Assembly: GCA_964016885.1 (NCBI GenBank)
Contig: OZ024740.1
Location: 227,416,001 to 227,480,000, forward strand
Source of the DNA: Eledone cirrhosa
Taxonomy: Eukaryota
Length of the DNA: 64,000 bases
Direction: 5' to 3'
Below, piece after piece: positions 4,429 to 61,790 of the stretch. The notes beneath the pieces are model-generated. The model was given only the letters and a program-made list of their open reading frames with translations. It made no database searches and had not been told where the DNA came from. Numbering within the stretch: the first letter of the stretch is position 1; every line of letters begins with the position of its first letter. Made by a program: the position numbers and the translations under genes.

Positions 4429-4431
4429 CAT

Positions 4432-4645
4432 ATTAAAAGTTTAAGCAATAAATTTCTGCTTCCACCCTAAGATGAGCCTGATAGGGTGAAAGCAGAAATT
4501 TATTGCTTAAACTTTTAATCTGTACTAATAATAAATATTTGCTCTACAAGTTTATATATATTTATATATATATATATATATAATATATATACAACCCTTT
4601 ATCGAGTCCTCTTTGGATTTGAGTCTTTGTATTTATTATTACTAT
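4432..4645 (+). mobile_element. Fold-back element family A: 38-bp inverted arms plus 3' tail ending TTACTATATA
   Basis: Arms 4432-4469 / 4482-4519 (1 mismatch), 12-nt loop; tail ATCGAGYCCTCTTTGGATTT..TTATTATTACTATATA recurs near 31395-31445, 32588-32631(-), 49801-49855. Confidence 0.75.
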
Positions 4646-7239
4646 ATATGTGTGTGGGTGTGTGTGTGTATCAGCATCTCCTCTCCCTTTCTCTCTAAAG
4701 CAATATATATTTAATTCTCTGTCTACCTCTCCTGCTACATTATTGTCATTTCATACCTTCTTTTTTTCTTTCCTATCACTCTTCCTCTTTTTCCATTTAT
4801 GAAGACAAACACAATTCATGAACACATACACACACAATTTTATAATATATTATTTATCCTTATTCTTCATATATCTGTGGGAGGGAGAGAGAAATATCCT
4901 TTACTTAGTATGTGTGTGTGTTTATGTTATTCACAATTCACTTTACAAATTTAATATTCAATCTTTCAAAAATATGGATTTGTTATCAATTTTTGGCAAA
5001 AAAAGAACAATATAAGTATAAATCTTCTTCTAGTATTCTGGTTTTCATGACATTTGAAATCTTAAAAATTCATCTCTTATTTGGCTACCTTGTGAACTAA
5101 CATTTGAATTTCATAATGTACTTTTACTATCATTTGCTTAATGGAAAAATTTAATATAATTTTAACCCAAATTCTTTGCAATAAAATGTCAAAATTTTGA
5201 CACATTCAATGTAGAATGGAATCTACATCAAAAGTTACAGACACATTTGGACAAGGAAAGCAATGTGGGAGTAGAAGTAAAATTCACTGGAGTAAAATTA
5301 TATGACAAGTTGCTACAGACACATTGAAGCTTGGCATCTGTAATCCCACCCTCTGTGAGTAGATGAAATTATATTGTCGTTAAATATGGATGTCTTATTG
5401 ACATTGTGTACATCTTCACTGTCAGAAACAGAAACAGGAAATCAAATTTTAAATTTGCAGCAAAGAAATAAAACACTATGTAATATTTTATGCTCGGTAT
5501 AATATGTTATGCCCATGGGGAGTTTAGTATTCAGTGTGTTGGGTTCACAGTCATGAGTTCGATTCCAGGTAGCAAGTTGTGTTTTTAAACAAGATATTTC
5601 ACATTGCTCTTGTCCACTGAACTAGCAAAAACTGAGTTGCACCTGTTACTCAAATATTTAGCCACTATGTCACACAGACTCTCCCTGAGAACTACATTAA
5701 AGGTGCACATGCCAGTAGAATGCCCAGCCACTTGCACATTAAATTTCATGAACAGATTGTTCCATTCTTTGAACAACTGGAACACTTGTCGACAGAATTG
5801 ACGATGATCCAACACTCACACACAAGCCTAGTATTGGTGCTAAGAAACTCTCAGGAGAGCTGGACAACAAAAGGTCTTCAGAGAATAAACCCCACCTCAA
5901 GTGAGTGTTTTGGCCCTTAACTTCTTACACTCTAAGGGGGCCGGACCACATCCAGGTCATGACTCTTGAGTGCCCTTCTACAGATATTTAGCCATTCAGA
6001 TATCAGCGACTTGCTGTGTATTTAAACTGTATGGAAATTTTGTGGACAGGATCTAGCTGAAACTCTTCTCCATTGCCTCTGTTTTCAAATTTATATTTAA
6101 ATGCTTTTTGAGTTTGGAAAAAATAACATTGGTAGTCATGGTAGCAGTGAGACGTCAACACTACAAACCATAACTCACTCAGATTTACAAAATTGAAATA
6201 CTAAGAGAAGTGTAATGAATAGTTAATAGGAGTGACACTGTATTTTAAATGTGAACAACTGGAGTTTTTTTTGTTTTGTTTTTATTAGTTAAGTTAGGAG
6301 GGAATGGACACTGCTTGTGGCCTTCACAGTTCATCTGAAACAGGAATGATTGGTGTTGTTGATGTTTTAAGACTATTGCTAGTTGTCTCTTTTTGAAAAA
6401 ACATAAACATGGAGCAGGTTCCAGAAGGCCAAATGTTCTGAGCAGGAAGGACTGGGAATAATAATTTGTTGAGGGCTTGGCAGGGCTGGACACAAAATGT
6501 GCAATAAGAAGAGGAGAGGCAAGGAAATCATGAGTGCCTAACAGTATAGAGCATGTGACTAGCCAGCTCCAAGGTTCAAAGAAAGGAGATAGTATGTATG
6601 TAGGCCAGAGACTGAAAAATGTCTATGAATGACTTTATGCCAATTAGTTCATCACTGTTCAACATCCATTTTTCCATGCTATCATGGGTTAGACAAGTTG
6701 TACTGTTGTGAGAAATGCCAGGTTAGGTGACCATGACTTGCTCATACAGAAGTGATTTTGGCTTGGTTTCTACAGATGGATGACCTTCCTAATGCCATTC
6801 ATATTACAGTATGGACTGGGTGCTTTTTGTTGTGGCACCAAAATGACCAATTTCCAGTGTGGACTGGGGGCACAGAGATACAACAAAAGTCTTATTAGGT
6901 TCAAGCTTGAAAAACAAGCAACTGAGGATTAATTTTGTGGTGAACTAGCATCTTATCTAGTCTTGTACTCTGTTATATAATTGTTTATACTTTTGGCACA
7001 AGGCCAGCAATTATCTCGGTGTATTACTGGTACTTTATTTTATCAATCCCGTAAGGATGAAAGGCAAAGTTAACCTTGGTGGAATTTGAACTCAGACCAT
7101 AAAGGGCCGTAACTCTTTGCTGCAAAGCATGGCATCCAACACTCTACTGATACTGCCAATCAACAATGCCACATATACATATATTTTTTATCTATATAGA
7201 TTAAACTTAATTATAGTATATATATAATTATAGTATATA

Positions 7240-9690
7240 TATAAAAAATAACTTACTAGAGGCGACGGATGAGGTCTGTGGCTGGAGTAAGACCACATGC
7301 AGGAGGAGAATGACTTGGTGGTGGAACAATAAGGTAGATGAGGCAGTTAAGGCCAAGAGACAGGCATGGAAAGAATGGAAGAATGGGGGGAGCAGGGTGC
7401 ATTACATAGAGACCAAGAGGGAAGCTAGGCGACAAGTATACATAGCTAGGAGGGAAGCATAGGATAGAAAATTCAAGCATGTTTTGCAACGTGAGGACCA
7501 GAAACAGCAGGTGTTCAAGATTGCGAGGCAGTGCGTCAGAGAGAATTGTGATGTCATTGGAGAGAAGTGTATCCGGAATGATAAAGGTGAGCTTGCCCTC
7601 ACAAGTGCTGAGAAGAAAGATGCATGGAAGAGTCATTATGATAGATTACTAAATGAAAAGAATGCATGTGAAGAAGAGACCCTACCCCAAGTAGACCCTA
7701 TAGAGGGGCCAGCAGTACAAGTCAGCAGCAACGTAGTAAGTAAGGCAATCAAAGATATGAAGATGGGGAAGGCAACCGGTCCATCGAGTATAGCTGCCGA
7801 GATGCTGAAGGCATCTGGGTCTGTAGGTCACACTATAACCACACGTATTGTTAACCAGGTAATACTAGAAGGTGTCATACCAAAAGATTGGTGCAGTAGC
7901 ATCATTGTCAACTGCTACAAAGGTAAAGGTGATGCACTCGATAGAGGAAACTATAGAGGTATAAAGCTGATGAACCAGGTCATGAAAGTAACAGAAAGAG
8001 TTATAGCACAGTTCATTAGGGACCGGGTGAAACTAGATGAGATGCAATTTGGGTTTGTACCAGGGAAAGGCACCACTGATGCCCTCTTCCTTGTGAGGCA
8101 GTTACAGGAAAAGTACCTAGCTAAAAGTAAGCCACTCTACCTGGCATTTGTCGATCTTGAGAAAGCCTTTGACAGAGTTCCACGTGCTCTAATCTGGTGG
8201 GCTCTTAGAAAACTAGGAGTAGATGAATGGTTTGTGAAAGCTGTACAAGCCATGTATAGGGGAGCAGTCAGCAAAGTTAGGATTAGCAATGAGTATAGCG
8301 AGGAATTTAGCGTACAGGTTGGGGTCCACCAGGGCTCTGTTCTTAGCCCCCTCCTGTTCATCATAGTCCTGCAGGCAATAACAGAGGAGTTTAAGACTGG
8401 ATGCCCATGGGAACTCCTGTATGCAGATGACCTCGCACTTATAGCTGAATCTATGGTAGAACTGGAGAAGAAATTCCAAACTTGGAAGCAGGGACTAGAA
8501 AGAAAGGGTCTCAAAGTCAACATGACAAAGACTAAGGTCCTTGTAAGTAGACGAGAAGAGAGAACCCAGATCCCCTCAGGGAAATGGCCTTGCTCAGTAT
8601 GTAGGAAAGGTGTAGGTAGGAACTCCATTCTCTGCCCCAAATGCAAACAATGGGTACACAAGAGATGTAGCGGGATCTCAGGAAGCTTAATTAAGAATGT
8701 AGGATTCACATGCAGCAGCTGCGCTGGGACAGCAAGCAGCAAACAGCCACAGGAAACAAGTACCACCAAACTCTGGGATGGCTCTGTAGAAACAGTAGAC
8801 AGCTTCTGCTACCTAGGTGACCGAATTAGCAGTGGAGGTGGGTGTTCAGAAAGTACAATAACTAGGGTAAGAACGGAATGGAAGAAGTTTAGGGAACTAC
8901 TACCACTGCTAGCTGCAAAAGGCTTCTCCCTCAAAATGAAAGGCAGACTGTATGATGCATGTATCCGAACAGCGATGTTGCATGGTAGTGAGACCTGGGC
9001 GCTGAAAGTGGAAGACTTACGTAGATTAGAGAGAAACGAAGCCTGCATGCTCCGATGGATGTGTAATAGTAATATACGCGACCGACAAAGCATAAATGAA
9101 TTGAGAGAGAGACTGAGCATAAGAGGAATCAAATGCTGTGTGCAGGAGGGGCGGTTGCATTGGTATGGACATGTGATGCGTATGAAGGATGACAGCTGCA
9201 TAAAAAGGTGCAGAGTACTAGAAGTCGATGGAAACCGCGGAGTGGGGAGACCCAAGATGACCTGGGATGAGGTGATGAAAGCCGACCTTACCCAATTACA
9301 CCTCTCAAAGGTGATGACACACGACCATGACCTCTGGCATCACGCAGTAATACAGAGTACCTAATCTCCCATAGGTACAAGCTGAAGCATATAGACAATA
9401 TGCCCCCACACCCCCCACTGCAAGGTGGTCGTGGAGGTGCCACGGCAAAAAAGCACCCAGCCCACACTGTAAAGTGGACGTGTAGGCGCCACGGATAAAA
9501 GCACCCTGCACTCACTGTAAATGAGGTTGGTGTTAGGAAGGGCATCCAGCTGTAAAAATCAAGCCAAATCAGTTCCTGTATGAGCAAGGCATGCTCAGCC
9601 GACCAGACACTGCCCACAAGAGGACAATCCGTCTAACCCATGCTAGCATGGAAGAACGAACATAAAACGGTGATGAAGATGATGATGATA
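7240..9690 (+). mobile_element. RTE-clade LINE, 5'-truncated, with 3' UTR and (GAT)n tail
   Basis: Highly similar to 63081-64000 over the shared part; begins abruptly at a TA tract; premature TAG near 7460 where the other copy has GAG. Confidence 0.95.
7484..9364 (+). CDS. Non-LTR (RTE) reverse transcriptase, N-terminally truncated, with internal C4HC3 finger
   Basis: KATGP, YKGKGD..NYRGIKL, QFGF, FVDLEKAFD, GVHQGSVLSPLLF, LYADD, GLKVNMTKT, FCYLG, RLHWYGHVMR, GRPKMTW. Confidence 0.95.
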   Translation: MQREDQKQQVFKIARQCVRENCDVIGEKCIRNDKGELALTSAEKKDAWKSHYDRLLNEKNACEEETLPQVDPIEGPAVQVSSNVVSKAIKDMKMGKATGPSSIAAEMLKASGSVGHTITTRIVNQVILEGVIPKDWCSSIIVNCYKGKGDALDRGNYRGIKLMNQVMKVTERVIAQFIRDRVKLDEMQFGFVPGKGTTDALFLVRQLQEKYLAKSKPLYLAFVDLEKAFDRVPRALIWWALRKLGVDEWFVKAVQAMYRGAVSKVRISNEYSEEFSVQVGVHQGSVLSPLLFIIVLQAITEEFKTGCPWELLYADDLALIAESMVELEKKFQTWKQGLERKGLKVNMTKTKVLVSRREERTQIPSGKWPCSVCRKGVGRNSILCPKCKQWVHKRCSGISGSLIKNVGFTCSSCAGTASSKQPQETSTTKLWDGSVETVDSFCYLGDRISSGGGCSESTITRVRTEWKKFRELLPLLAAKGFSLKMKGRLYDACIRTAMLHGSETWALKVEDLRRLERNEACMLRWMCNSNIRDRQSINELRERLSIRGIKCCVQEGRLHWYGHVMRMKDDSCIKRCRVLEVDGNRGVGRPKMTWDEVMKADLTQLHLSKVMTHDHDLWHHAVIQST

Positions 9691-11668
9691 TCATCATCAT
9701 CATCATCATCGTTTAACATCTATCTTCCATGCTAGCATGGGTTTAGATGGGAATTGTCCCACTTCAGACAAGATTGGTTGTCTTGCTCGTGTAGGACTGT
9801 CTGGCAGGTTTTCTACGGCTGGATGCCCTTCCTAACACCAACCACGTTTACAGTGTGGACTAGGAGGTTTTTACCGTGTTACCTACATGGCCACATTACA
9901 GCGTGGACTGTGTGTTTTTTTGTCGTGACACCTACACGACCTCATTTATTTAGGACTGGATGTTGTGGTACCAACATAACTTTATAGCAAAAGGGGTGGT
10001 GTCGATGGGGGTGGGGCTAGGGGTTGTTTGATGGGGGGTGTATTTTTGGTTAAGAGGTGGCTACTGACTGTAGGTTTCGCTTTGTACTTAGGCAAGGCAG
10101 GTCTTCTGTATTACTGCGTATCACCAAAGATCTCGGTCCAGTGATATTGTCTTGGAGAGTGTGTAAGTGTGTAAGGTCAGAATTTATCAAATCGTCCCAA
10201 GTTTTTCTGGGTCTGCCTACTCCATAGCTTCCCTCTATTTTGATTGCCCTGCACTTTTTATACAGCTGTCATCTTTCATGCGCATCACATGACCATACCA
10301 ATGTAGTTTTCTCTTGAGTAAACAGCATCTGATCCCTCTTATTCCTAATTTCTCACTTAGTTCATTTATGCTTTGCCGTTCACGTATATTACTATTACAC
10401 ATCCAACGGAGCATGCAAGCTTCATTCCTCTCCAGTCTGCGCAGATTCTCTGCACACAATGCCCATGTCTCACTGCCATGTAACATTGTTGTTCGTATGC
10501 AGGCATCATACAGTCTGCCTTTCATTTATAGAGAGAAACCTTTAGCGGCCAATAGTGGTATAAGCTCTCTGTACTTTTTCCATCCCGTTCTGACTCTAGC
10601 TACTGTACTTTCAGAGCACCCACCACCACTGCTGATTTTGTCAACCAGGTAACGGAAGGTGTCCACTATTTCTATAGAACCATCTGGGCAATGGAAGGAA
10701 CTAGTATCCTGTGGGCACTTGCTACTACTTATTGCACCTGAGCACCTGCCACATATAAAATATATGTTCTTAGTTAGCTTACCTGTGATCCCACTACATC
10801 TTTTATGTCCCCATACTTTGCATTTGGGACATAAAATGGAGTTTCTGCCTACTTCTTTCCTACACACTGAGCATGGCCATTTCCCAGAGGAGACCAGTGC
10901 CCTATTTTCCTTCCTACATACTAGAACTTTAGTCGTAGACAAGTTAATTTTAAGGCCTTTTGATTCTAGGCCATGCTTCCATGTTTGGAATTTCTTCTCT
11001 AGTTCAGCCATTGATTCAGCTATGAGCGTTAGATCAACTGCATATAGAAGTTCCCATGGGCAGCCGATCTTGAACTCCTCTGTTATAGCCTGAAGGGCAA
11101 TAATAAATAGGAGGGGGCTAAGGAGAGAGCCCTGATGAGCACCAACTTTTACGCTAAATTCTTCACTATATTCATTGTTAATTCTAACCTTGCTGACTGT
11201 TTCTTTATACATGGCTTGTATAGCTCTCACAAGCCATTCATCAACACCTAGTTTTCTGAGAGCCCACCAGATAATGGAGCAGGGGACTCTGTCAAAGGTT
11301 TTCTCCAAGTCAACAAAAGCTAAGTATAGGGGTTTACTTTTAGCTAGATACTTCTCCTGTAGTTGTTGTACAAGGAAAAGAGCGTCTGTGGTACTTTTAC
11401 CTGACACTAACCCAAACTGCATTTCATCTAGATCAATTCACTCTCTGATTAGTTGCGCTATAACTTTTTCTGTGACCTTCATGACCTGGTCAATTAATTT
11501 AATGCCTCTAGTTTCCCCTATCTAGGGCATCTCCTTTACCCTTGTAGCAGTTAATGGTGATACTGCTACGCCAGTCGTTTGGTATGACCCATTCTGTATG
11601 ACTTGGATTACTATCCGGGTGACCATAGTGTGTCCCACCATTCCAGATGCTTTCAGCATTTCAGCAAC
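9691..11668 (-). mobile_element. Second RTE LINE subfamily, 5'-truncated and disrupted
   Basis: ORFs 10526-11422 and 10235-10525 give RT motifs (FVDLEKTFD, GAHQGSLLSPLLF, LYAVD instead of YADD) with stop/frameshifts; 3' UTR ends in (ATC)n at 9691. Confidence 0.93.
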
Positions 11669-14950: not shown

Positions 14951-15018
<68 letters not shown>

Positions 15019-20832: not shown

Positions 20833-21138
<306 letters not shown>

Positions 21139-31110: not shown

Positions 31111-32109
31111 TTCATTTAACATGAGCTATATAATACCTACAGAATGAAACTGTATAGTAAACTCCATAACCATCACTTAGACATATCATGTTTCTATAAG
31201 AACAACAGGAATAGGGAGTAATAAACAATATAGTTTATTTGTCTCTTTCATCATTTCAATTTTAATCATTATGGAGGATTTTAAACTCTAAAATAAATCA
31301 ACATAGCTTACAAATGAATAGAAATATAAACTTTAATCTGTTATTTTAATAAATATTTGCTCTATGGTTCTTATATATTTGATATATATTTATCCTTATC
31401 GAGCCCTCTTTGGATTTTAGTCTTCAAATTTATTATTATTACTATATATCATCATCATCATCATCATCATCACCGTTTTACGTCCGTTCTTCCACGCTAG
31501 CATGGGTTAGACGGGTTGTCCTGTTGTGGGCAGTGTCTGGTCGGCTGACCATGCCTTGCTCATACAGGAACTGATCTGGCTTGATATATATATATAGTAA
31601 TGGGCGGTGGATTGGCAGTATCGGTAGAGGGTCGGACACCATGCTTTACAGCATAGTTACGTCCCTTTACAATCTGAGTTCAAATCCCATCGAGGTTGAA
31701 TTTGCCTTTCATCCTTATGGGGTCGATTAAATAAAGTACCAGTAATGCACTGGGTAATTGCTGGCCTTGTGCCTAAAGTAGAAACAACTACTATATAGTG
31801 GTTGTGGAGGTGCCACGGCAAAAAAGCACCCAGCACTCACTGTAAATGAGGTTGGTGTTAGGAAGGGCATCCAGCTGTAGAAACCAAGCCAGAATCAGTT
31901 CCCGCCCCACCCTTGCAAGCAGGGAAAAAGTGGACGTAAAATGAAATGATGAAATGATGAATGATGATATATATATATATATATTAAAATAACAGATTAA
32001 AGAATCGCTGCTTTCACCCTTAAAGGGATCTTCTGGGCTTGTGTGTGTGTATATATATATATATGTGTATGTGTATCTATATATACATACATATATATAT
32101 ATATATATG

Positions 32110-32572: not shown

Positions 32573-34329
32573 ATATATATATATATAGTAATAATAATAA
32601 AATTGAAGACTAAAATCCAAAGAGGGCTCGATATTAGGTATTAACATGTGATTACACCGTATTTGACTAAATAGAATTAGTCTGTTATGCTCAACCATTG
32701 GCACATTAATTTGATATGCAGGTTATGTCATTGATTAAGTGACTGGAACACTCATTGGTGGAACCAACAAGTAAATAGAATCTTTAGATCCCATAACTCC
32801 TTGTGGAGTCATAGGAACACCGTCAAATGGTGTGTCTAGGGCACTTTTACACCTGGCAGAGCCCAACCCTCTCCAGGTCTGAACACAGCCAATTTTTTCT
32901 ATAGAGGAAGAATCGACCCCAGTTCTAGACTGGTACTTTTATCGATCTTGAAAGGATTAAAGGCAAAGTTGACCTCAGCGGAATTTCAACTCAGAGCTCG
33001 TAATGAGGTAGTACGAATACCGTAAAGCATTCTATATCACGTCTTAATGGCTCTGCCAATTTGCCGCCTAAATAGAATCATATGATGCCAAATTGACAGA
33101 GTTGTTAGACTATCAGGTAGAATGCTTTGCAGTATTTGTTCTGGCTTTCTACTCTCTGAGTTCATGTCCCACAGAGGTCAACTTTGTCTTTCATCCATTC
33201 AAAAAAAGTACCAGTCTAGTACTGGGGTCAATTCTTCCTCTATATTTCTTTCCCACTTCCATTCACTCACCCTCTATCCTTCTCTAGAAGAAATCAGGAG
33301 AGGAGATGGGCTCTGCCAGGTTTAAAAAATGCCCTTGAAATGCTCTATGTCAACATGGCACTCCTATGACTGCCTAAGGAGTTACGTGACCATACAATAC
33401 ATACTGTTTACACAGTGGAATAGGCAGTGCTCCTGAATCTCTTCAGGGCCTCTAAGTCTTGTGAGAGGAAGGGAAGAAGGTATACTCAAACCAAAGATTC
33501 AGTTCAAATGTTGCAACTGAATGAACTCCAGTAAAAATACCTAAGGGTCAAGTAGTAGTGTTAAACTTGCTGACAAATGGAATGAGAGAACTAGTATTTT
33601 TTTGTGTGATATAGCCTTAAAATAATAGTTTCTGATTTAGGCACAAGGCCAACAATTTGGGAGGAGAGGGAAAAGTCGATCAAATTAACACTAATGCATT
33701 ACTGGTACTTTATGTTATCAACCCCCATAAGGATGAAAGGCAAAGCTAACCTTGGCAGGATTTGAACTCAGAACGTAAAGGGCCAAAACTCTCTGTCGTG
33801 AAGTAGGGTCACCGACACTTTACCAATACTACCAATAATGTTGATGATGGTAGTGATAATGAGGATTTTAAGAGAATTTAATTTGTTTTTCAAATCTTCA
33901 ATGTCTTTCAATATTTCATTGTTTTTGTCTTGCTCTTTTTATAACAGTGCAGTCCAAATGTTTGGTACAGCATGGATGTAAAAACATTGCCAAAATGTTC
34001 TAGAGATTTAGCTTTGTATATAGTTTCGTTTTTTTTTATCATCATCATTATTATCATCATCATCATCATCATCATCATCATTATCATTATTATTATTTTA
34101 ACACTTTCACTCTCATCAGTTTCTAAATACTGCTAAAAACAACACCAATTTCAAATAGCTATTAAAAAAATAACTTCACTTATCAAGACCAAGATCACAA
34201 ACATAATGAAATATTCAATATTTCTTAATATTTGATAATGTTTTTTAGGTTAATAATGAAGATATTCCAAGCAACAAAATTTCACTTAAGAATTTGTTGT
34301 TTATTTCGATGAGAACATTTTTTTCTTAA

Positions 34330-38423: not shown

Positions 38424-38889
38424 ATATTGTTATACTTTGGGAGGGTCATGTTGTCAATAAGAAACACACGCACCAGTTGCTTTCACTTCAATTTATTATA
38501 AATGAAATTTATAAATTTAAGAATTTATAAATTTCCGGTTGGTTGGTTGGTTCCACAACCGGACGGTTGTTCATATATTGTCAAAGTTCTTTCGTCACAC
38601 ATTCTGTGACCTCTTCAGTGAGAAAAGAATCTCCAGTCACTGAATAGGTCACAGAATGTGTGACGAAAGAACTTTGACAATATATGAACAACTGTCCGGT
38701 TGTGGAACCAACCAACTAATCGGAAATTTATAAATTCCTAAATTTATAAATTTAATTTATAATAAATGGAAGTGAAAGCAACTGGTGCGTGTGTTTCTTA
38801 TTGGCAACATGACCCTCCCAAAGTATAACAATATCGGTTTCAACACACATTTTCAGATAAAGAATCTTGCTAAACAAATTCAGAAACGA
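38424..38889 (+). mobile_element. Fold-back element family C, copy 1: 198-bp arms carrying a minimal hammerhead
   Basis: Arms 38424-38621 / 38637-38834, 15-nt loop, unique tail to 38889, (TA)n on both sides; homologous to 54552-55131. Confidence 0.92.
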
Positions 38890-38907
38890 AATATATATAT
38901 ATATATG

Positions 38908-39189: not shown

Positions 39190-39194
<5 letters not shown>

Positions 39195-41005
39195 CCTCAA
39201 TCTAGAGTCCGGCCTCTACTACTCGTACCACAAGCCGAACGAGTGCCTCAAGTACGTGAATACCAACTCCAACCATCCCGGGTCAGTCAGGAGGGCCATT
39301 GTTAATAGCGTATCCCGTAGGATTTCTTCTCTGTCAACTAGCCAGGAAACCTTCAATAGCGTAGCTAGCTACTATAATAATGCCCTTATAATGCAGGTTA
39401 CAAGGAAGGAATTAAGTTTATACCTAGTCTAATGAATTACGTTACCGCTGACAGTAACACTTCAGTGGGAATCAACGACGGGATCAACATGATTAGAACT
39501 TCATTACTCGTTCCTGATACAACACCACAGAGTAATCCTGGAGGAACTGCTATCCATGGCTTATCAGGAAGGGACCAGACCTCACCTACTTTGGAAAGCA
39601 GTGAAGTCAACGCGGTGGAGCCGCGGGGGACATGTGTGGGCCCGGGAGTGAGCGTGGAAGGTACTAACCACCTCCCTCGCTATGAGCGGGGACCACTCAG
39701 CTCGGGGAGCTCCGGTCGGCGTAACCAACCCAACAGGCAGCGACGAATTGGAGGGCATGGCTATTCCAGACGTCCACAACGGCTACATAACATACTCTGA
39801 CAGAACGGGTACATGGACTGGTGACTACAGCAAGAAGCGAACCCGTTCCCGTAATGTCATTTGGTTTACCCCCCCCCCCTTTTACGCCGGTTTACGCAAC
39901 AACATAGCGGCCTCTTTCTTCAGGGCTTTGGATAAGCACTTCCATAAGCAACACCGGTACCACACCATCTTCAACAGGCACATGGTTAAATTGTCCTACT
40001 CCACAACTAGAAACCTAGCACAAAACATAGAAGCCTTGAACCGCAGTAGATTAAAAAACGTCCGCAACTCCATGGGAAACAGCAACCGTGAGAAGACGCA
40101 CCACGCAAATACCTCTTCCTCTGTTGGTAACGTCTTGGACCGTGAAAGACCGGAGAATCACGCAACGCGTTCCGGTGATACAGGCGGCAACACCCCTCCG
40201 GGCTGTAATTGTAGAAACCCCGGTAGCTTCCCCCTGGAGGGTAGGTGTCTCGGCAGTGGCTTAGTATATGAATGTAGGGTGACTACCAGCAACCATGCCT
40301 TCACCTATATCGGATCCACGGCTAATAAGTTTAAGGAAAGCTGTACAATCACTACCACACCTTTAAGAGGGTTAAGAAGCACAGCACCGCCCTCTCAGAA
40401 CTAGTGTGGCGTCTCAAACGGGATAACTTGGAATACACCTTGTCAACAAAGAGGGTGGACATGACTCATGCGATTTGTGTGCCCCCGAGATTATGGAAAT
40501 AATCAAGAGGGGAGCTCGAGTTATCAATAAAAGGAGTAACCTCTTCAGCACCTGCCTTCACAGATCTTCTGGAACCTTCATCAAACTGTACAGACTAGCA
40601 ACGTAGTGGTGCTAGTTGAACACTTTTGTAATCTTGTCCGTGGAAGCCGGACATAGCCTCGCGGCAACCCCAGCATCAAGCGAGCCTTGGATATCTTGTT
40701 TGCACACCTGGAGACTCTATGTGTACTTGTTTCTTGTCATTTGTTCCCTATTCCTCTGTTTATATACCTACTACTGTTTTTTTTATGTATTTTGTCCCGT
40801 TCCTTTATTATTGTGTTCTCTATATGTGTTCTCGTTTCTTATCTGCTTGTTCCTGTCCCTACTTTCGCTTCCCGTAACTCTCTTCCATGGTCTAACAGCC
40901 CTTTTGATAGTATTGTTGCCACTGTGGTTAGGACTGAATGCTATGATCATTGCTGGCCTTGTGTCTTCCAATGATAGAGGAGCATTGTATTAACTAGGAA
41001 TGTTT
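39190..41005 (+). mobile_element. Penelope-like element, 5'-truncated: RT C-terminus/thumb, Cys-rich linker and GIY-YIG endonuclease, frameshifted
   Basis: VTLNLESGLYYSYHKPN..YVNTNSNHP..RRISSLS..YYNNAL; RSRNVIWFTPP..LDKHF..IFNRHMVKLSYS; CNCR..PLEGRCL..LVYECRV..YIGST..FKE. Sits between (TG)n and (TA)n. Confidence 0.9.
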
Positions 41006-42177: not shown

Positions 42178-42184
<7 letters not shown>

Positions 42185-42519
42185 AAGTTAAATAAAAGTC
42201 AAATGATTAAAATTTAGCTTCGTTTATTACTGCTATATATATTTCAGTGACAGCCATCTTTGGCTGTGACCTCTTCAGGCAGTTTGAATATGTACTTGTC
42301 TATACCATACTAATTCAAACTGCCTGAAGAGGTCACAGCCAAAGATGGCTGTCACTGAAATATATATAGCAGTAATAAACGAAGCTAAATTTTAATCATT
42401 TGACTTTTATTTAACTTTATTTTACACTACTCCGGAGTAACCAAACCAACCTGCGCACTTCGTCGAGTGCTCCAGCCTGCATACTGAGGTATTGGTATAC
42501 AACCAACATAAACTCAAAA

Positions 42520-42522
<3 letters not shown>
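42178..42522 (+). mobile_element. Fold-back element family D: 112-bp apparently perfect arms containing a complete hammerhead
   Basis: Arms 42178-42289 / 42313-42424, 23-nt loop, tail to 42521, (TA)n flanks. Confidence 0.92.
42319..42373 (+). ncRNA. Minimal type I hammerhead ribozyme (mirror copy on - strand at 42229-42283)
   Basis: Stem I ACUGC/GCAGU; CUGAAGA 42324-42330; 11-position stem II (G-U closing pair, C-C mismatch); GAAA 42357-42360; palindromic stem III AUAUAUAU; predicted cleavage after 42368. Confidence 0.85.
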
Positions 42523-44041: not shown

Positions 44042-44046
<5 letters not shown>

Positions 44047-44228
44047 AACCAGTAAGACCCCGACGGCTGAGCTCAAGCCGTTTCGACGGCTAATTCAGAA
44101 TTAGCTGTCGAAACGGCTTGAGCTCAGCCGTCGGGGTCATACTGGTTCCTATTACCCACTCTACTACCCCAAGTATTGAGTACTTTGGTGCGTTATGGTC
44201 CACCTGGTTCCTTACCACATTTCCTTCG

Positions 44229-44231
<3 letters not shown>
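44042..44231 (+). mobile_element. Fold-back element family B, copy 2
   Basis: Arms 44042-44096 / 44098-44152 (1-nt loop); GAAACGGCT-TGAGCTC-AGCCGTC stem III with GUC at 44130-44132; (TA)n flanks. Confidence 0.9.
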
Positions 44232-45161: not shown

Positions 45162-45836
45162 TTGTATAGTTCATGTAGGAGTCATTAAAAAAAGCACCCA
45201 CTCCACTCTGTAAAGTAGTCATGTAGATGTTACAACATAAAGTCCCCAATACTCACTGTAAATGGGGTTGGCATTAGGAAGGGCATCTAGCTGTAGAAAC
45301 CAAGCCAAAATCAGTTCTGTGACAGAAACATGGGCGGAGGTGGTGAGGGCAGACGTCAGATTGCTGAAGCTCACAGAAGAGATGACAAAGGACCGGGGCA
45401 AGTGGAGAGATGCTGTGCTGAATAGGACCCGTCCCACCCTTGCAAGCAGGGAAAAGCGGACGTAAAATGGTGATGATGATGATGATGATGATATATATAT
45501 ATATATATATATATCCAAATAAGAGGCAGCGTTAATAACTCATATTAATACCCTGTATTTAACAAGCTCAAAGTTTAAATACCGAGCATTATGTGGATTG
45601 GCAGTATCGGTAGAGGGTCGGACGCCATGCTTTGACGCATAGAGTTACGGCCCTTGCCATTCTGAGTTCAAATCCCGCCGAGGTTAACTTTGCCTTTCAT
45701 GCTTACGGGATCGATAAAATAAAGTACCAGTAATGCACTGGGTAATTGCTGGCCTTGTGCCAAAAAGTAGAAACAATTATATAATAGCCCCAGCATGGCC
45801 TCAGCCGGATGGCTGAAACAGGTAAAAGAGTAAAAG

Positions 45837-46137
45837 AGTAATAAACACAGTAAATTCTATGTTTAAAATTACGAGAGTTAAGATACCACATTGGTTTGAC
45901 AGATTTAACCTGAAGCAAACGGAAAATACAGGATAAAGAGTAAAATGTACAGACTGTTTCAATAACTATTTCATCTCCCGGACAGATTAGAAATTTAATC
46001 TGTTTCGCTCTGAGAATTGTGTTTGTAACAGATAATCCGTAGGCATCATCAGCGTTTGCTTCAGGTTAAATCTGTCAAACCAACATGGTATCTTAACCCT
46101 CGTAATTTTAAACATACAATTTACTGTGTTTATTACT
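45837..46137 (-). mobile_element. Fold-back element family E: 85-bp arms enclosing a hammerhead core
   Basis: Arms 45837-45921 / 46053-46137. Spacer on the - strand reads CUGAUGA (46052-46046)..GAAA-CAGAUUA-AAUUUC-UAAUCUG-UC (GUC at 45983-45981). Confidence 0.85.
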
Positions 46138-48064: not shown

Positions 48065-48131
48065 TATTTTATCTGATGAGGACGTACTGTTGAAGTTAAC
48101 TCAGTACCTCTGAAATATGTATAATAAAATA
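48065..48131 (+). ncRNA. Minimal type I hammerhead ribozyme
   Basis: Stem I UAUUUUAU/AUAAAAUA (8 bp); CUGAUGA 48073-48079; stem II GGACGUACUG/CAGUACCUCU; GAAA 48112-48115; stem III AUAUGUAU; predicted AUA site at 48123. Confidence 0.82.
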
Positions 48132-49220: not shown

Positions 49221-49253
<33 letters not shown>

Positions 49254-49772: not shown

Positions 49773-49849
49773 CTATATATATATATATATATATATATAT
49801 TATCCTTATCGAGCCCTCTTCGGATTTTAGTCTTCACATTTATTACTAT

Positions 49850-49885
<36 letters not shown>

Positions 49886-50795: not shown

Positions 50796-50827
<32 letters not shown>

Positions 50828-51041: not shown

Positions 51042-51078
<37 letters not shown>

Positions 51079-52429: not shown

Positions 52430-52705
52430 ATAAGTCTAAAGTCTGTCTCAATCCAGGAGGCTCGTCAGGCCAGTGCTAATCTCAGTTTTATGGCATGAAG
52501 CGACTGAGAGTACAAGACTCCCCTGAAAAAGACAGCAGTCTATCGCAGGGTTAAACACACCAAGCTATTGCTGGTACTTATTTTCAACTGAGTATACTGG
52601 AGCAACGTGGAATGAAGTGTTTTGCTCAAGAACACAACCCAGCCCAAGAATCGAACCCACAACTTTATGATCGTAAGTTCAACCCCTTTACCACTAAGCC
52701 ACCTC
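52430..52705 (-). mobile_element. tRNA-derived CORE-like SINE
   Basis: Minus strand GTGGCTTAGTGGTAAAGG..GGGTTCGATTC..GTGTTCTTGAGCAAAACACTTCATTCCACGTTGCTCCAG. Confidence 0.85.
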
Positions 52706-53504: not shown

Positions 53505-53561
<57 letters not shown>

Positions 53562-54379
53562 CAAAAGTTATCTGTCTCTAATATTTAGACATCTCATGAA
53601 AGGATAAAATATATTAATAAATTAAACTTAATATTAAACTTAAGCCAAAATCCTGATTTGGGGAGGCATATAAGCTAGACAGACTAAAATGAATCAGTTT
53701 TACTTGTATAGTTCCCCAACCATGGTTCCTGGAATTGAAGAAATAATATTAATCATTTCAAAACATTGGAATAACAAATATTGGAAGAATCACAATTACT
53801 TTGTCAGGAGGACAATTCTTTGGAATAAGAGGATCAGTTGAATATATAGCATACATTCCATGTCATTGCTGTGACTGCATTGTGAATCAGGAAAAACTAG
53901 GCAGGAAGATGTAGACAGCAGAAGAAATTTATTGTGTGTTCAATCTTTAACATATGTTTCTGTACAATTACATAATAGTCTACATCCACTGACTACATTA
54001 TATACTGTTCATTTGTATGCATTATGTGTCTGTGATTGCACTTCATCAGAAAGAAGAAAAGAACAAAAATGTTAACAGGGAAGAAGAAAAATTGTTATAC
54101 TCCATGGTGTGGGTCTTTCCAATTGCTAATACTATCTATTGGTCGCAACTCCAGGTAGAAGGAGCAGCATGAAATAAAGTGTCCTGCTCAAGGACATAAT
54201 GCATTGCCCGGTCCGGGAATCGAAATCACAACCTCACCATTGCGAATCCAATTTTCTAACCACTCAGCCACACACTTTCACATTATATATATATTTCACA
54301 GTATATATATATGTATATATATATATATATTTCACAGTATATTTATATATATGTACATATATATATATATATATATATA

Positions 54380-55131
<752 letters not shown>

Positions 55132-55138
55132 ATATATA

Positions 55139-55421
55139 TTGTTATACTTGGGGAGGGTCATATTTGTGTAATATTGCCAGAATTAATAACAGAACACACT
55201 CACTGTTTGGTTGGTTTTCGCTTCTGTGTCTTTTATATCGGTTAATTTAATTTATTCGGTCCTCAATGTTGCCATTGACTGACCAACGGTCAAAAATACA
55301 GATACAATATAGACACAAACACATATATATAGTCTATCAAAGTTCTTTCGTTGCACATCTGCAACATCGTCAGTGGTGCTATTGTTTCATCCCGTTGCAT
55401 TGTATTTTCTACGCCATCTTT
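55139..55421 (-). mobile_element. Diverged family C relative with hammerhead at 55336-55377
   Basis: Minus strand starts AAGATGGCGTAG, contains CUGACGA-U-GUUGCA-GAUG-UGCAAC-GAAAGAACUUUGA, ends TGACCCTCCCAAGTATAACAAT. Confidence 0.8.
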
Positions 55422-55452
55422 CATATATATATATGTATATATATATGTATAT

Positions 55453-55529
<77 letters not shown>

Positions 55530-55999
55530 CACACATGCGCACACATACATACATATATTTATACATACATATATATGCACATACATACATATGTGCATAC
55601 ATATACTCACACACATAAACACATATATGTGTATACATACACGCACATACATATGTTAAAGAGACATAAAATATTTGTGGAAATCTCTTTCCCATTTTCA
55701 TAGGAGATTTTCATAACTATTCAGTCATTTAAAGAGAAAAGGGAAAAACTAACCTTTACCTAATCTGTTGTTAGTAAACTATTAAGTATACATCTGTCAA
55801 ACATTTACTTGTTATATAACAACCCACCTCTACCTCTCCCCGCCTCGCCCTACCCTGCCATGTCAACTTCGATAATAATAATATTACAATGACACAACAA
55901 ACTCAGGGCTTGACAGAAATTTACACACAGAAATTGCCATCCTACTATAAACTACAACCACAACCACTACTACCAGCACCATCTCCATTATCATTATCT

Positions 56000-56660
56000 C
56001 ATTTACATTGCCACCATCAATCACCACTACCACCACCACCTCTACCATACAAAACGATTTACATCGACAGCACCTACCACTGACACCGCCACCACCACCA
56101 ACACTACCACCACCCTACCAAACCATTTACATCAACAGCACCAACCAACTCCAGTACCACCACTGCCACCACCAACACTACCACCACTACCACCACCACC
56201 ACCATCACCAGGGCCACCACTACCACTACAACCACCACCACCGCAACCACCACCACCACTACCACCACTACCATCACCACCACTCCAACCACCACCACTG
56301 CCACCACCACCACCACTACCATCACCAACACTACCACCACCCTACCAAACCATTATCATCAACAGCACCCACCAACTCCAGTACCACCACTGCCACCACG
56401 AACACTACCACCACTACCACCACCACCACCACCACCACTGCCACCACTACCACTACAACCACCACCACCACAACCACCACCACCACCACTACCACCACTA
56501 CCATCACCACCACTCCAACCACCACCACCATGCCATTCCATTTACATCAACAGCACCCACCACTGCTACCACCAACACTGCACCACTACCACCACCAACA
56601 CCAACACCACCAACACCACCACCACCACCATCATACCATCCCATTTACATCAACAGTACC
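56000..56660. repeat. (ACC/ACT)n tract with internal duplicated blocks
   Basis: Direct inspection. Confidence 0.9.
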
Positions 56661-57303
56661 CACCATCCCCAGCTCCAGCTATCAGTGGGGGGGGGGGCTC
56701 ACTTATCCATTTGATCCACCCCACTGCCACCACTACCATCAGCATATCCCCTCCTCTACCATTCTAACCACTGCTATTCCAAGTCCCCAAAACCCACCAA
56801 AATTATTGGCTATACAACGCTACCTGCATATAATATATATATATATGTGTGTGTGTGTGTGAGTATGTGTGTGTGTGTATCTGAGAGTCTGTGTGTGTCT
56901 CTGTGTGTGTATCTGTGTGTGTCTCTGTGTGTATCTGTGTGTATATGTGTTGGTATAGGTGTATGTGTGTCTGTCTGTGTCTGTATTTACTTGATTGACA
57001 TAAAGTAGTGTTATTTTGATTGCTTCACATTTTCATATCATTTCTTTCTTTATTTCTTTGTTTGTTTACTTATTTATTTATCTGTTTGTATATTTATTTA
57101 CTTATTTCATGGAGATTATAAAGAGGAGAGGCGGGTATAAAGGGGAGGCAACCATAAACAGCTACCCTACCCTCATCTTCCACTCCTCCAATATCTATCT
57201 CTCCCTCTACCTCTATGCATGCATTCGCTCACAGAAAAAAAAACATCCACCCAACAAAACAACATATCCATGTATATATATGAGTATATATATATATATA
57301 TAT

Positions 57304-57512
57304 ATAGGAACAAGTATGACCCCCGACGGCAGAGCTCAAGCCGTTTCGACGGCTAATTCTGGACTCCAGAATTGAGTCCAGAATTAGCCGTCGAAACGGC
57401 TTGAGCTCTGCCGTCAGGGTCATACTTGTTCCTATTACCCACTCTACTACCCTAAATATTGAGTACTTTGGTGCATTATGGTCCATCTGGTTCCTTACCA
57501 CATTTCCTTCGT

Positions 57513-57514
<2 letters not shown>
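57304..57514 (+). mobile_element. Fold-back element family B, copy 3
   Basis: Arms 57304-57366 / 57374-57435, loop CAGAATT; (TA)n flanks. Confidence 0.9.
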
Positions 57515-57543
<29 letters not shown>

Positions 57544-57553
57544 GAAGTGTGAG

Positions 57554-57587
<34 letters not shown>

Positions 57588-57620
<33 letters not shown>

Positions 57621-58297
57621 GGTTTAGCGTCCGTGTTCCACGCTTGCATGGGTTTGGACGGGGGTTTTCCCACTTGAGGCAAGAGTGGTTGTCTTGCTCG
57701 CATAGGACTGTCTGGCGGGTTTTCTACAGTTGGATGCCCTTCCTAACACCAACCACATTTACAGTGTGGGGCTGGGAGGTTTTTACCGTGTTGCCTACAC
57801 GGCCACATTACAGCGTGGACTGTCTGGCGGGTTTTCTACAGCTGGATGCCCTTCCTAACACCAACCACATTTACAGTGTGGGTCTGGGAGGTTTTTACCG
57901 TGTTGCCTACACGGCCACATTACAGCGTGGACTGTGTGTTTTTTGTCGTGACACCTACACGATCTCATTTGTTTCGGCCTGGATGTTGTGGGACCAACAT
58001 AACTTTACATTGAAAGGGGCGGTGTGGGTGGGGTAGAGGTGGTGGGATGGGGGTGTGTTTTGATAGAGATGCCTACTGACTGTAGTAGGTTTTTACTTTG
58101 TATTTAGGTAAGGCGGGTCTTCTCTATTACTGAGTACCGCCAAAGGTCTCGGTCCAGTGACATTGTCTTGGAGAGGTGTAAGCGTGTGAGGTCGGAATTT
58201 ATCAGCTCGTCCCATGTTTTTCTGGGTCTGCCTACTCCGTGGCTACCGTCTATCTTTATTGCCCTGCACTTTGTTATACAGCTGTCGTCTTTCATGA
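57588..58297 (-). mobile_element. RTE 3' fragment with 3' UTR containing an internal tandem duplication of about 112 bp
   Basis: ORF 58104-58295 is the RTE C-terminus; GGACTGTCTGGCGGGTTTTCTACAG..CAGCGT occurs at about 57705 and 57817; (ATC)n tail. Confidence 0.88.
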
Positions 58298-58333
58298 CAT
58301 GTGTGTATATATATATATATATGTATGTATATG

Positions 58334-58456
<123 letters not shown>

Positions 58457-58460
58457 TGTT

Positions 58461-58665
58461 TGTTTAATATAGAAATGGCTTATACAGGACTAGAAGTGTT
58501 TCATTTGAAGGAAATCATCAGGAAAGCTTTCCTGATGATTTCCTTCAAATGAAACAGTTCTAGTCCTGTTGAAGCCATTTCTATATTAAACATTGTGTAT
58601 ACTCTACTATGTATTGAGTACCTTACTTATTACTTACTGTAGTTAACCCCCGATTGAACCTAGGA
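58461..58665 (+). mobile_element. Fold-back element family F: loop-less 66-bp-arm palindrome with degenerate hammerhead core
   Basis: Centre GGAAAG|CTTTCC at 58526/58527; arms 58461-58526 / 58527-58592; CUGAUGA 58532-58538, GAAAC 58551-58555, GUC 58563-58565. Confidence 0.8.
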
Positions 58666-58763
58666 TACACACACACACACACACAGATACACACACACAC
58701 ATATATATATATATATAAAATCATCATCATATATATATGCATATATATATATGCATATATATA

Positions 58764-58825
<62 letters not shown>

Positions 58826-59100
58826 TTAAAAAATAATGAATAAAACAATGAAACAGTTCCTTATATTAAACAAAAAAAGTTCATTATTTAACGATCGTTT
58901 CTAGGACATATATGTGTTAGAATTGGCATGTATATTTAACAGATCTATGTACAAAATTATACAAACTATCAAAATTAAATATACATACCAACACATATAT
59001 ATGCCGTCTTTCATTGCATCTCTTCTTTCCATGATATCCGGATTACATTGAGTTCTTCATACGGATTGGACACTACCGTAAACTCTTGGTAGATTTATCT

Positions 59101-59131
<31 letters not shown>

Positions 59132-59524
59132 GCTATCATCCTATAGATATCTATTTGCTTGAGTGTTATGTATACTGGTGCTGTTTCCCTGGTTGTCATA
59201 TTCCCAGGTTTATATTATTACCTAGAATTATTCCAACAATGTATTCTCTCTAAAGCATTCCCTTAGTAACAAAGACACAGCAATTGTTTACTATAATTTA
59301 TTGGTAATTATATTCGGCAACCATCATAGTATATAAAGAAATTATAAAAAAACAATGAATAAACCTATGTACAAAATACTCAACAATAATTATTTAAGCA
59401 GAGAGCAAAAATTGTACAAACTGTGTGTGTGTTTATGTATGTGTATGTGTGTGTATGTGTTTGTGTGTGTGTGTGGCATATACATATATATATGTCTATG
59501 TATGTATATAAACACACATATATA

Positions 59525-59594
<70 letters not shown>

Positions 59595-59662
59595 TGTATG
59601 TATGTACATAAACATATATATATATATATGCATATACATATATACATGTGTAATATATGTAC

Positions 59663-59733
<71 letters not shown>

Positions 59734-59878
59734 TATATATATATGCATATACATATTATACAAATGCATGAGTGTCTTTAGGTATATATATTTGTGTGTA
59801 TGTATGTGTGTATATGTATGTGTGCATGTATGCATATATATATATATCTTTATATATATGTTTGTATATATGTATGAA

Positions 59879-59944
<66 letters not shown>

Positions 59945-60312
59945 TGTATGTATGAATGTATGTATGAATGCATGTATGTATGTATGTAAATATGTATGTT
60001 TATATGTATGTATGTGTATATATATATATATATATGTATGCATGTATGTATGTTTATATGTATGTATGTAAATATGTATATATGTATGTATACACACGTC
60101 TCTGTTTACATTTATACATGGACATATTAATAGTCGTCAATCATTTTGATATTCATATATTTATGAGTTTATTCAGTAATATATGCCCCAGTGTTTGCAC
60201 TTTTTATTTATTTAAATGACGTATTAACAGGCACACATGTACTCATAGACAATTAGATGAACTAAGTGCAGGAAATGTAGATAGACAGACAGATAGACTG
60301 ACTGAGATAGAT

Positions 60313-61517
60313 ATATTTCTTTATTTGCCACAAGGGCGCACAAGAAAGGGGGACAAAACAAGGACACATGCCAGGGATTTTACATACAGTCGTGTAAAAA
60401 TATTGAAACAAACAAATTTAACAATCGAAATCCCCAATAGTGGGGATGCCCCACCAAATGGGTTGTTTAATACCCCCGTCGATAGAACAACCCTCAACTT
60501 CAGGAGCGTGTTGTGCAAGTGGCTCCTTTCTTCCTTTTGCTCTCTTCTTCAACCTACAGGTTTATATACAGACAGACAGATAGATATCTTTCTTTATTAA
60601 GATATCTTTCTTTATTAGATATCTTTCCAGACAGATAGATAGATAGATAGATAGATAGATGGATGGATTGATAGATAGATAGATAGATTTCTTTATTAGC
60701 CACAAGGGCGCAACAAGAAAGGGGACAATACAAAGACATGCCGGGGATTTTACATACAGTCGTGTAAAATATATAAAAACAAACAATTTCAACAATCGAA
60801 ATCCCCAATAGGGGGAAGGCGCCACAAATGGGTTGTTTAATACCCCGCCGATAGAACAACCCTCAACTCAAGGAGCGTGTTGTGCAAGTGCTCCCTTCTT
60901 CCTTTTGCTCTCTTCCTCAACCTACAGGCTTATAAACAGAGAAGGCCCAATCCCTCGGGCCATTTTCGCTTCATTCACCCACCTTTCAGTAAATTTACTG
61001 GGGTGCAGTGCCTCTCTCTCCACTCTGACTCTCCTTCTAAAGTGATACTTAAAGAAGGGAATCAATTGTTGTCTGGAGAGAAAGACATCTGTCCTCAGTC
61101 CTCTCAATCTCGTCCACCATATAACCTCTTTCACCATAGCCGCTGTACAGAGGAAAACCACCTTGTCAGCGAGACAAGTTGTGGGAAGGCCTGTCTCACA
61201 AACGGTGCCCACACCGGTTGGGGGTCGGTGAGGAATACCTGAAGATGCCGTAGCCTCAGCGCATGTTTGCGCATTATTAGCTACGGCATGCCTAGCCCTC
61301 CGTTGGAAGGGTGTTGACAGCAGACGGATCTCCTCACCAGTGGAGCCTGCTTCTTCCACAGGAACTGAAAGAGCATGCGTTCCATCTTGGTGAGGTATTC
61401 ACGGGGACAAGGCACAACAGTCAAGCGGTAGTAGATGACGGACGCTATGAAACTGTTTGCCACCTCCGCTCGACCTTTCAAAGACAGTTTGCACTCTGCC
61501 CACTTCTGGGTGAGCGC
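60313..61517 (-). mobile_element. Tx1/L1-like LINE 3' fragment with duplicated 3' UTR in (GATA)n
   Basis: KGRAEVANSFIASVIYYRL..ERMLFQFLWK..VRRSVCCQHPSNGGLGMP; 3' UTR present twice (about 60315-60565 and 60688-60930), each ending AATAAAGAAAT next to TATC repeats. Confidence 0.85.
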
Positions 61518-61519
61518 AA

Positions 61520-61790
61520 ATTTGTTCTTCTTCCTTGTGTCTCCTCTTCTTTCTGGACTAATTTTGTTTACTCCATCTTATTTTGTTTACTACAAGATGG
61601 AGTAAACAGAATAAGACCAGAAAGAAGAAGAGGCACAGAGAAGAACAAATAGTCACTGATAGGGTCACAGAATGTGTCACGAAAGAACTTTGACAAACTA
61701 ATTAATAACTAATAATAAAGCTGAAGTGAAAATCAAATAATGTGTGTGTTTTTATTTGAAAAATTGACAACATGGCTACTTTGCAAATAT
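61520..61790 (+). mobile_element. Older family C-related fold-back element with degenerate hammerhead
   Basis: Imperfect arms 61520-61579 / 61594-61650 pivoting at AAGATGG; then GTCA-CTGATAG-GGTCACAGAATGTGTCAC-GAAAGAACTTTGAC. Confidence 0.75.

Follow-up and report, generated by a model that had tools for sequence, protein, structure and literature searches.

Several traits of Penelope-like elements (PLEs) are already in print, namely hammerhead ribozymes in their pseudo-long terminal repeats (pLTRs), hammerhead pairs on opposite strands, inverted copies, one-ended tails, targeting to (TA)n and two start sites for the reverse transcriptase (RT). In the accessible parts of the sources cited here, Hydra-clade PLEs are described as a small number of short (<3 kb) families and PLE inverted repeats and tails are said to be of unsettled origin (PMC8557442), self-priming being the published guess for the inverted repeats (PMC3846280). 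The promoter of Drosophila Penelope lies within the pLTR (PMC2377424), and minimal PLE hammerheads found as opposite-strand pairs 100-700 bp apart are ascribed to truncated PLEs (PMC4209133). The purified protein of Anolis Poseidon (PAc) cuts and extends both strands of AT-rich DNA, and in vitro its two adjacent internal start sites on the RNA bound the tail, with no difference in start site between strands (PMC11167929). Retrozymes have likewise been presented as PLE derivatives (bioRxiv 10.64898/2026.07.22.740005). Here we describe a 64,000-nucleotide (nt) stretch of the Eledone cirrhosa genome (contig OZ024740.1, positions 227,416,001 to 227,480,000; hereafter the window), an AT-rich, microsatellite-dense part of a 3.0-Gb assembly that carries ten short fold-back insertions. 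These fold-backs are the ribozyme-bearing pLTR ends of PLEs and of one or two non-coding satellites of PLEs, probably generated by twin priming into (TA)n. Twin priming is known from L1, where two primings on opposite target strands yield an inversion.

Pairing of the two 3' ends

In all six families tested, the 3' ends of the arms fall into two peaks, termed P and D, which lie 57-97 nt apart with the tail between them. Among the non-tandem head-to-head insertions from all loci, a tally that leaves aside 16 tandem copies and in which family E was counted with its microsatellite trimmed, 175 join a P end to a D end, 3 are D+D, 2 are P+P and 24 have an unclassed end; that is, one P is paired with one D in 175 of the 180 fully classed inverted insertions. 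The comparison sample on its own (800 kb, in 80 evenly spaced 10-kb stretches of the genome) gives 20 P+D insertions and no same-end pair, and tandems followed outward favor P+D pairing by 186 to 5. The long inverted copies of family A pair a P with a D as well, and the arm that is long or tandem can be the P arm or the D arm. An original prediction for this window, drawn up from the letters alone, had described the usual layout as inverted copy, loop and sense copy with a unique tail; the arms and the one-ended tail stand, the tail being carried by either arm rather than always by the sense copy.

In 44 of the 175 P+D pairs (one of them, at locus L333, is probably a tandem), the arm lacking the tail extends 15 nt or more beyond the 5' end of the tailed arm, and in 10 of the 175 the arms do not overlap at all. 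Because neither arm of such a mutually non-containing pair can have been copied from the other, simple fold-back copying is excluded, and these arms point to twin target-primed reverse transcription. Two priming events, one per DNA strand, would occur at (TA)n, with one RT beginning at P and the other at D, and the 3' ends of the two complementary DNAs (cDNAs) would then be joined head-to-head via short palindromic microhomologies or small templated inserts. The junctions do contain short palindromes (CATATG in family C, AAAGCTTT in family E) and small templated inserts, as expected when two same-sense cDNAs are joined. Self-priming, in which the cDNA or an antisense RNA copies itself (PMC3846280), with the tail as a remnant of resolution by the endonuclease (PMC8557442), could also account for the many junctions that are near-perfect palindromes, such as that of C, and for the arm ends lying within 15 nt of each other in most pairs. 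A self-copy must, however, sit within its template, which is not the case for the non-containing pairs, and a non-overlapping joint of positions 5225/5226 to 5319 is repeated in independent contigs; we regard self-priming as improbable.

These contigs are short-read assemblies of other samples (X2 and X4 from one sample and X3 from another, all within one study). They have loose ends at the 5' hot spot discussed below, at P and at D, and X2 and X4 carry the strand-change joints of 5225/5226 to 5319 at that hot spot; the summed contig depth of the 140-nt segment is some hundreds of times that of the open reading frame (ORF), a ratio of depth and not of copy number. A target-site duplication is unreadable inside (TA)n. 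Inverted repeats with TA at their ends might be taken for miniature inverted-repeat transposable elements (MITEs), for other DNA-transposon derivatives or for fold-back assembly artefacts. Against these readings stand the head-to-head arms, the asymmetric tail, the variable central junction, the hammerheads, the contiguity with RT ORFs, arm divergence of up to 15% and the reproduction of the ends in other samples' contigs, which together make them extremely improbable, and the DNA-transposon reading is already refuted by the ORF links. The prediction had held that the elements are not MITEs, in agreement with the tail, junction and ORF contiguity, and the assembly artefact that it had named as a refuting outcome is countered by the ends and strand-change joints found in the other samples.

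The window families and their parent elements

Self-BLAST after masking recovered a local inverted repeat at all ten sites where the original prediction had placed one, with arms of 41-252 nt and 85-100% identity. They form seven groups, A to G, and the features of the window are as follows.

4429-4644 (+): family F, old copy; sense arm beginning at about 4483, after an inverted P arm at 4429-4469; TA stretch inside the 86-nt tail; arms 41 nt, 95% identical
within 4429-4644 (+): family F hammerhead 3' half, read by eye; GAAA at 4488-4491, predicted cut after 4508
20835-21035 (-): family A, in (TA)n; D arm plus tail from 20973 to 20835, inverted P arm 20975-21035; arms (from 20915) 59 nt, 97%
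38428-38891 (+): family B; inverted P arm 38428-38621, sense D arm 38621-38891, 57-nt tail; sense hammerhead core mutated; arms 194 nt, 96%
39191-40620 (+): PLE remnant of Hydra type, with broken RT thumb, linker and GIY-YIG; adjoins fold-backs
42180-42521 (+): family C; inverted P arm 42180-42289, sense D arm 42290-42521, 97-nt tail; arms 110 nt, 100%
42324 (+) and 42278 (-): family C hammerhead cores, a complete type I in each arm
44045-44229 (+): family A; inverted P arm 44045-44096, sense D arm 44096-44229, 77-nt tail; hammerhead 3' half only; arms 52 nt, 96%
45515-46130 (-): family D; inverted P arm 46053-46130, sense arm from 46054 to 45844, hammerhead core at 46052; arms (from 45844) 78 nt, 95%
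within 45515-46130: further parts of the family D copy; short interspersed element (SINE) insertion(s) 45593-45843 and probable displaced tail 45515-45592, a weak tail match equalled by 8 of 500 shuffles
54553-55127 (-): family B; tailed D arm on the left (54870 to 54553), P arm 54871-55127, junction just above the AAGATGGCG motif; arms (from 54619) 252 nt, 99%
54809 (-) and 54937 (+): family B hammerheads, complete in each arm
57307-57512 (+): family A; inverted P arm 57307-57365, D arm 57371-57512, extra G before AGTCC on both arms; arms 60 nt, 97%
58461-58668 (+): family E; inverted P arm 58461-58526, D arm 58527-58668; arms 66 nt, 95%
within 58461-58668 (+): family E hammerhead, complete by eye, CUGAUGA...GAAA...GUA site; site altered in the window copy
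61520-61786 (+): family G, older B lineage; 60-nt inverted arm over the 5' part only (85%), then degenerate hammerhead and 3' end

Where about six unrelated families had been expected, the diversity is upheld and the full unrelatedness is not: G is an older branch of the B lineage, and the tails of A and E align (none of 500 shuffles was as good). TA tracts flank both sides of all three A copies, both B copies and the C copy. The E copy has TA on the left and (CA)n followed by TA on the right, whereas the expected TA setting fails in part for F, with (ATT)n on its left, and for G, with TA on the right side only, and in D it is found on both sides only when the probable displaced tail is counted. 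The extent first given for the F element also needed correction, as the copy runs to about 4644, beyond its internal TA stretch.

A purpose-built type I hammerhead descriptor gave 7 matches in the window versus 0-1 per shuffle (20 shuffles) and 72 in the 800-kb sample versus 2, 5 and 3 in three shuffles, the enrichment over shuffles that had been anticipated; the window matches at 54049 and 47265 look like chance. The motif lies in the pLTRs of A, B and C by descriptor and of F by eye, there with a CAGA core variant, and all four are predicted ribozymes; E and F motifs escape the descriptor and were identified by eye. An Rfam scan of the window at E<=1 gave no hammerhead among the matches listed (150 of 363), which were microRNA-like hairpin noise only. 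Further hammerhead-like motifs, belonging to other PLE-type families and lacking an inverted arm, are present at 48073 (+), 42749 (-), 55373 (-), 1624 (+) and 52468 (-), that at 55373 being preceded by the AAGATGGCG motif, as in family B. A de novo count found 83 short fold-backs in the 800 kb, about 100 per Mb, of which 36 have TA at one end and TA within 130 nt of the other, many of them further families, and 24 were flagged as known families, at least 4 of these spuriously. More families with TA, hairpin and tail, none of them represented in the window, were seen elsewhere (L184:6332, L213:2678 and L219:8667; L222:26 and L227:9500; L387:3844 and L393:5358; L200:690-940), and the last of these continues into a PLE ORF.

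In longer copies, five of the seven families (A, B, G, C and F) are contiguous with ORFs combining RT and GIY-YIG. By the motifs given in PMC8557442, of which C and F each show a subset, A, C and F would be the pLTR ends of Hydra-type PLEs. Longer A copies extend upstream via about 1.2 kb of 3' untranslated region to the GIY-YIG C-terminus, and the A parent has a tandem unit of 3,531 bp with a 717-amino-acid ORF that opens with ATG 94 nt past the tail. The ORF carries RWR, DKT, YRDD, the linker CNCPDRSIC (CxCX5C), CNLC (CxxC) and CKH (CxH), and neither CX2-5CxxC nor CCHH; a Pfam scan of the protein gave no match at E<=0.1. A protein search returned 52,004 candidates, and all 150 that were scored are 99-100% identical with no stop within the match, some lying in arrays of 3,531-bp period; the parent is young and intact, and homologues at about 40% identity number 2,049. 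Arrays of 4-5 near-identical 3.5-kb units occur at L152-L154 (G000:C1:437195001-437220000) and L159-L160, and those at L152-L154 have one P end and one D end at their borders, which suggests a circular or multimeric RNA template. The full A hammerhead has a U3:A8 core, a long stem II (54-nt region), a stem III with a palindromic loop and a GUC site. Window copies keep its whole 3' half (stem II 3' strand, GAAA, stem III, GUC site and stem I 3' strand), and the 5' half with the U3:A8 core lies just upstream and is present in long copies, contrary to the earlier view that family A retains only a stem followed by GAAA.

The first 600 kb of the sample contain 19 A insertions and the following 200 kb about 4, a density at which the genome would hold roughly 90,000, mostly of about 140 nt, and one exact family A 26-mer occurs 17,171 times. 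Fixed outer ends, very high copy number and the absence of an ORF from D and E could suggest non-autonomous hairpin masters that are transcribed and copied as whole hairpins by the PLE RT. However, 64 short A fold-backs have 52 different junctions and the recurring ones stand on different subfamily haplotypes, which indicates that the hairpin is rebuilt at each insertion; in addition, solo copies lacking an inverted arm start at the same base, and long ORF-bearing copies have identical outer ends. A fixed arm mismatch in about 16 A copies was considered as a sign of two templates or of a hairpin master and was rejected, as young copies have the same base in both arms and the apparent mismatch arose because the search query carried the private base of the window copy. 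We judge hairpin masters to be quite improbable.

Family B is the 3' end of an RT and GIY-YIG element, contiguous in L031, whose protein gives an RVT_1 match below the cut-off and a GIY-YIG match in Pfam. Because its linker is CIDK-x-CITC (CX4CxxC) and two Cys between GIY and YIG are accompanied by two His (CCHH), B would be of Neptune or Nematis type, and B and G are taken to be ends of such a PLE; G has RT and endonuclease (EN) 224 bp upstream in L284 and L300. A short B P-end at 55103-55164 lies tail-to-tail with the 54553 element across a TA tract, and PLEs inserted into one another's TA flanks are likewise seen at L031, L087 and L164. Family C has a pLTR upstream of its ORF and runs in L063 into a Hydra-type ORF with RWK, DKT and YRDD (N-terminal part only). 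Family F lies 956-957 bp downstream of a Hydra-type ORF end in L175 and L185, with CNCRNRADC, CDLC and CKH (C-terminal part only); an ORF link in L279 proved to be a chance neighbor. Young F copies (L175:8140-8235 and L185) have a CAGAAGA core (U4 to A) and a CUU site, and extra short F ends, tail-only or P-only, are found in the window at 31327-31442, 31977-32035, 32588-32633 and 49782-49852. The architecture of EN-bearing PLEs is seen in the partial tandems of A, the inverted 5' copy and the one-ended tail.

Families D and E stand apart in having no ORF. D is 73% alike to D2, an ORF-less 467-nt unit found in up to 4 tandem copies, with a longest stop-free frame of 104 codons and a descriptor-detected type I hammerhead. 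D2 is young and inserts in (TA)n with the P/D inverted structure, the same rule as in the coding families; obeying that rule, it is likely mobilized by PLE machinery. In its long form, E is a non-coding sequence of about 400 nt that lies between (TG)n and (CA)n; no linked ORF was found in 25 loci, an apparent link in L200 being a chance neighbor, and no tandem was seen among the matches listed. D, a relative of D2, is non-coding, and E probably so. A near-identical D copy with a 187-bp partial duplication lies about 40-60 kb from many chromosome ends (L233-L255; for example G000:C13:59351, C9:44156, C19:43429 and C18:43870270), as part of a subtelomeric repeat.

The central proposal of the original prediction, that these are PLE-made, hammerhead-bearing, TA-targeted elements of very high copy number, is borne out. 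Its class of non-autonomous hairpin elements survives for D and probably E, whereas A, B, G, C and F are short ends of autonomous PLEs, and even in D and E the hairpin is an insertion product and not the mobile unit; autonomous PLEs expected behind each family were joined to five of the seven and not to D or E. The PLE remnant placed at 39.2-41.0 kb is real (39.2-40.6 kb, 36-45% identical to the A protein) and is the parent of none of the families, as its 3' region has no DNA match to any of them.

The 5' hot spot and the short copies

Of the 31 A arms in the 800-kb sample, 19 start at a distance of 134-143 nt from D, and just 4 extend beyond 143 nt. The hot spot lies around A3394 of the unit, in an initiator-like TTAGTC word 29 nt below a TATTTAAA box; the modal start of E lies 30 nt below a TATAAATA box that is present in 20 of 25 long copies, and B ends cluster just above the AAGATGGCG motif, which we take to resemble a YY1 site, as GCGCATGCGC presumably resembles an NRF1 site. 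Solo E copies joined to TA start with GGG in 5 of 6 cases, a G found in none of the 25 long copies. In family A, a non-template base precedes A3394 in 6,163 of the 17,171 26-mer matches, and the first 100 such bases comprise 45 G, 47 C and 8 A; a partner arm or an allele leaves 26 of 41 inspected G unexplained versus 6 of 25 C. The excess of G is confined to the modal base, neighboring ends showing none, and several A insertions have it on both arms. Deletion of the palindrome center after insertion was considered as a source of short copies and set aside, as solo copies start at the same base.

In retroviruses, strong-stop DNA is made when RT runs off the 5' cap, and a base may be added opposite the cap. 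We infer that the short arms would be RT run-off products at the capped 5' end of the RNA, primed in the 5' pLTR. In very short copies both RTs would use the 5' pLTR of the messenger RNA (mRNA) and run off its capped end to give a strong-stop-like product, and such run-off would produce the tight 5' cluster and the extra G. In family A the start would fall inside hammerhead stem II, leaving the ribozyme at the mRNA 5' end incomplete and the cap in place, with the 3' ribozyme whole; short A copies thus hold only the ribozyme 3' half.

Several points weigh against this account and the pairing on which it builds. The start site, expression and cleavage are predictions from the DNA; A 5' ends spread over about 12 nt (3389-3400), and those of B, F and D2 are less tightly clustered, with no hot spot in D2. 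The G excess at the A junction is moderate, and the base C, which mostly derives from the partner arm or from a T>C allele, is as common there. Most hammerheads fold with energies no better than those of shuffled sequences (family C, with a z of -2.5, being the exception), the family G copy at 61520 is not a P/D pair, and most loci were gathered by similarity search and are not a random sample. The spread of A ends, the position of the A hot spot in upper stem II and a start site predicted from DNA would suit an alternative in which twin priming operates as above and the short arms end by RT stalling in stem II or at a bound protein. On the other hand, the E and C hot spots lie at or upstream of the ribozyme 5' edge, outside any stem, TATA-like boxes stand at -29 (A) and -30 (E), and neighboring ends do not share the enrichment of the extra G that the modal base shows, so that stalling is unlikely.

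A wider extension of twin priming with run-off, to which we would give slightly less than an even chance, is that PLE integration may be an obligate two-enzyme event in which a dimer primes both strands of the TA target from two fixed RNA sites, the commonest outcome being an abortive strong-stop hairpin from the capped mRNA 5' end. The A promoter would then lie within the hammerhead, so that starting transcription switches the 5' ribozyme off, and the route would be common to autonomous PLEs and retrozymes, leaving on the order of 100,000 TA-embedded ribozyme hairpins in the genome, a large unannotated source of double-stranded RNA.

Surrounding repeats and comparison with known systems

Other repeats of the window include two abundant SINE-like families (4220-4403 and about 12 other sites; 2600-3034, 9413-9941 and others), and the inverted repeats at 9427-9941 and 32900-33244 are pairs of SINE-like copies, not PLE fold-backs. 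Copies of a long interspersed element (LINE) with AP endonuclease and RT, presumably RTE-like, occupy 7245-9362, 10099-11666 and 62100-64000, the first two in opposite orientation to each other, with one open frame of 633 codons at 7463-9361 and another open frame at 62100-63998.

The interest of these data lies mainly in PLE mechanism. P/D pairing and non-containing arms offer a countable genomic test, which favors twin priming over self-priming, and the pairing ties the two in vitro RT start sites (PMC11167929, as accessible) to two target strands; the young, intact, very high-copy Hydra-type family A is a ready reconstitution system. Repeat annotation would overlook these short fold-backs, which number about 100 per Mb and in many cases have this signature, or would label them MITEs, and if fold-backs are transcribed inside host genes they would form hairpin RNA. 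An octopus repeat annotation lists Penelope families and MITEs, and the word "hammerhead" is absent from the accessible main text (PMC13282606). A search of accessible main texts found no paper that states the P/D pairing or reports run-off products, arms that do not contain each other, or transcription starting within the ribozyme.

With the Hydra clade as described in the accessible text of PMC8557442, A, C and F have in common a hammerhead, insertion into (TA)n and an ORF with RW[K/R], DKT, the CxCX5C linker, CxxC and CxH around the conserved E/N, and GIY-YIG at its C-terminus, although C and F were each seen with a part of these motifs, whereas A differs in its 3.5-kb unit, its about 90,000 insertions, its U3:A8 hammerhead and its mostly about 140-nt products. 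The inverted 5' copy, one-ended tail, partial tandems and pLTR promoter with Inr-like motifs recall Penelope/Poseidon (PMC3846280, PMC8557442 and PMC2377424, as accessible), but known tails are 30-40 bp against 57-97 nt here, and here the ORF-less short form is dominant. PAc likewise has two start sites bounding the tail, AT-rich targets and use of both strands, although the accessible part of that paper neither links the two sites to two strands nor accounts for inverted repeats (PMC11167929). The type I fold, short or palindromic stem III, extra base at the stem II 5' end and U3-A8 variant are those of minimal PLE hammerheads, for which the accessible text describes neither P/D pairing nor fixed ends, nor a start of transcription within the ribozyme (PMC4209133). 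D2, whose ORF-less 467-nt units lie in tandem and carry a type I hammerhead, fits the definition of non-LTR retrozymes given in the accessible part of PMC7229834, but its insertions in (TA)n have the inverted P/D structure of PLEs. In contrast with L1 twin priming, the PLE primings here would be at fixed internal sites, so that the two arms usually overlap into a hairpin.

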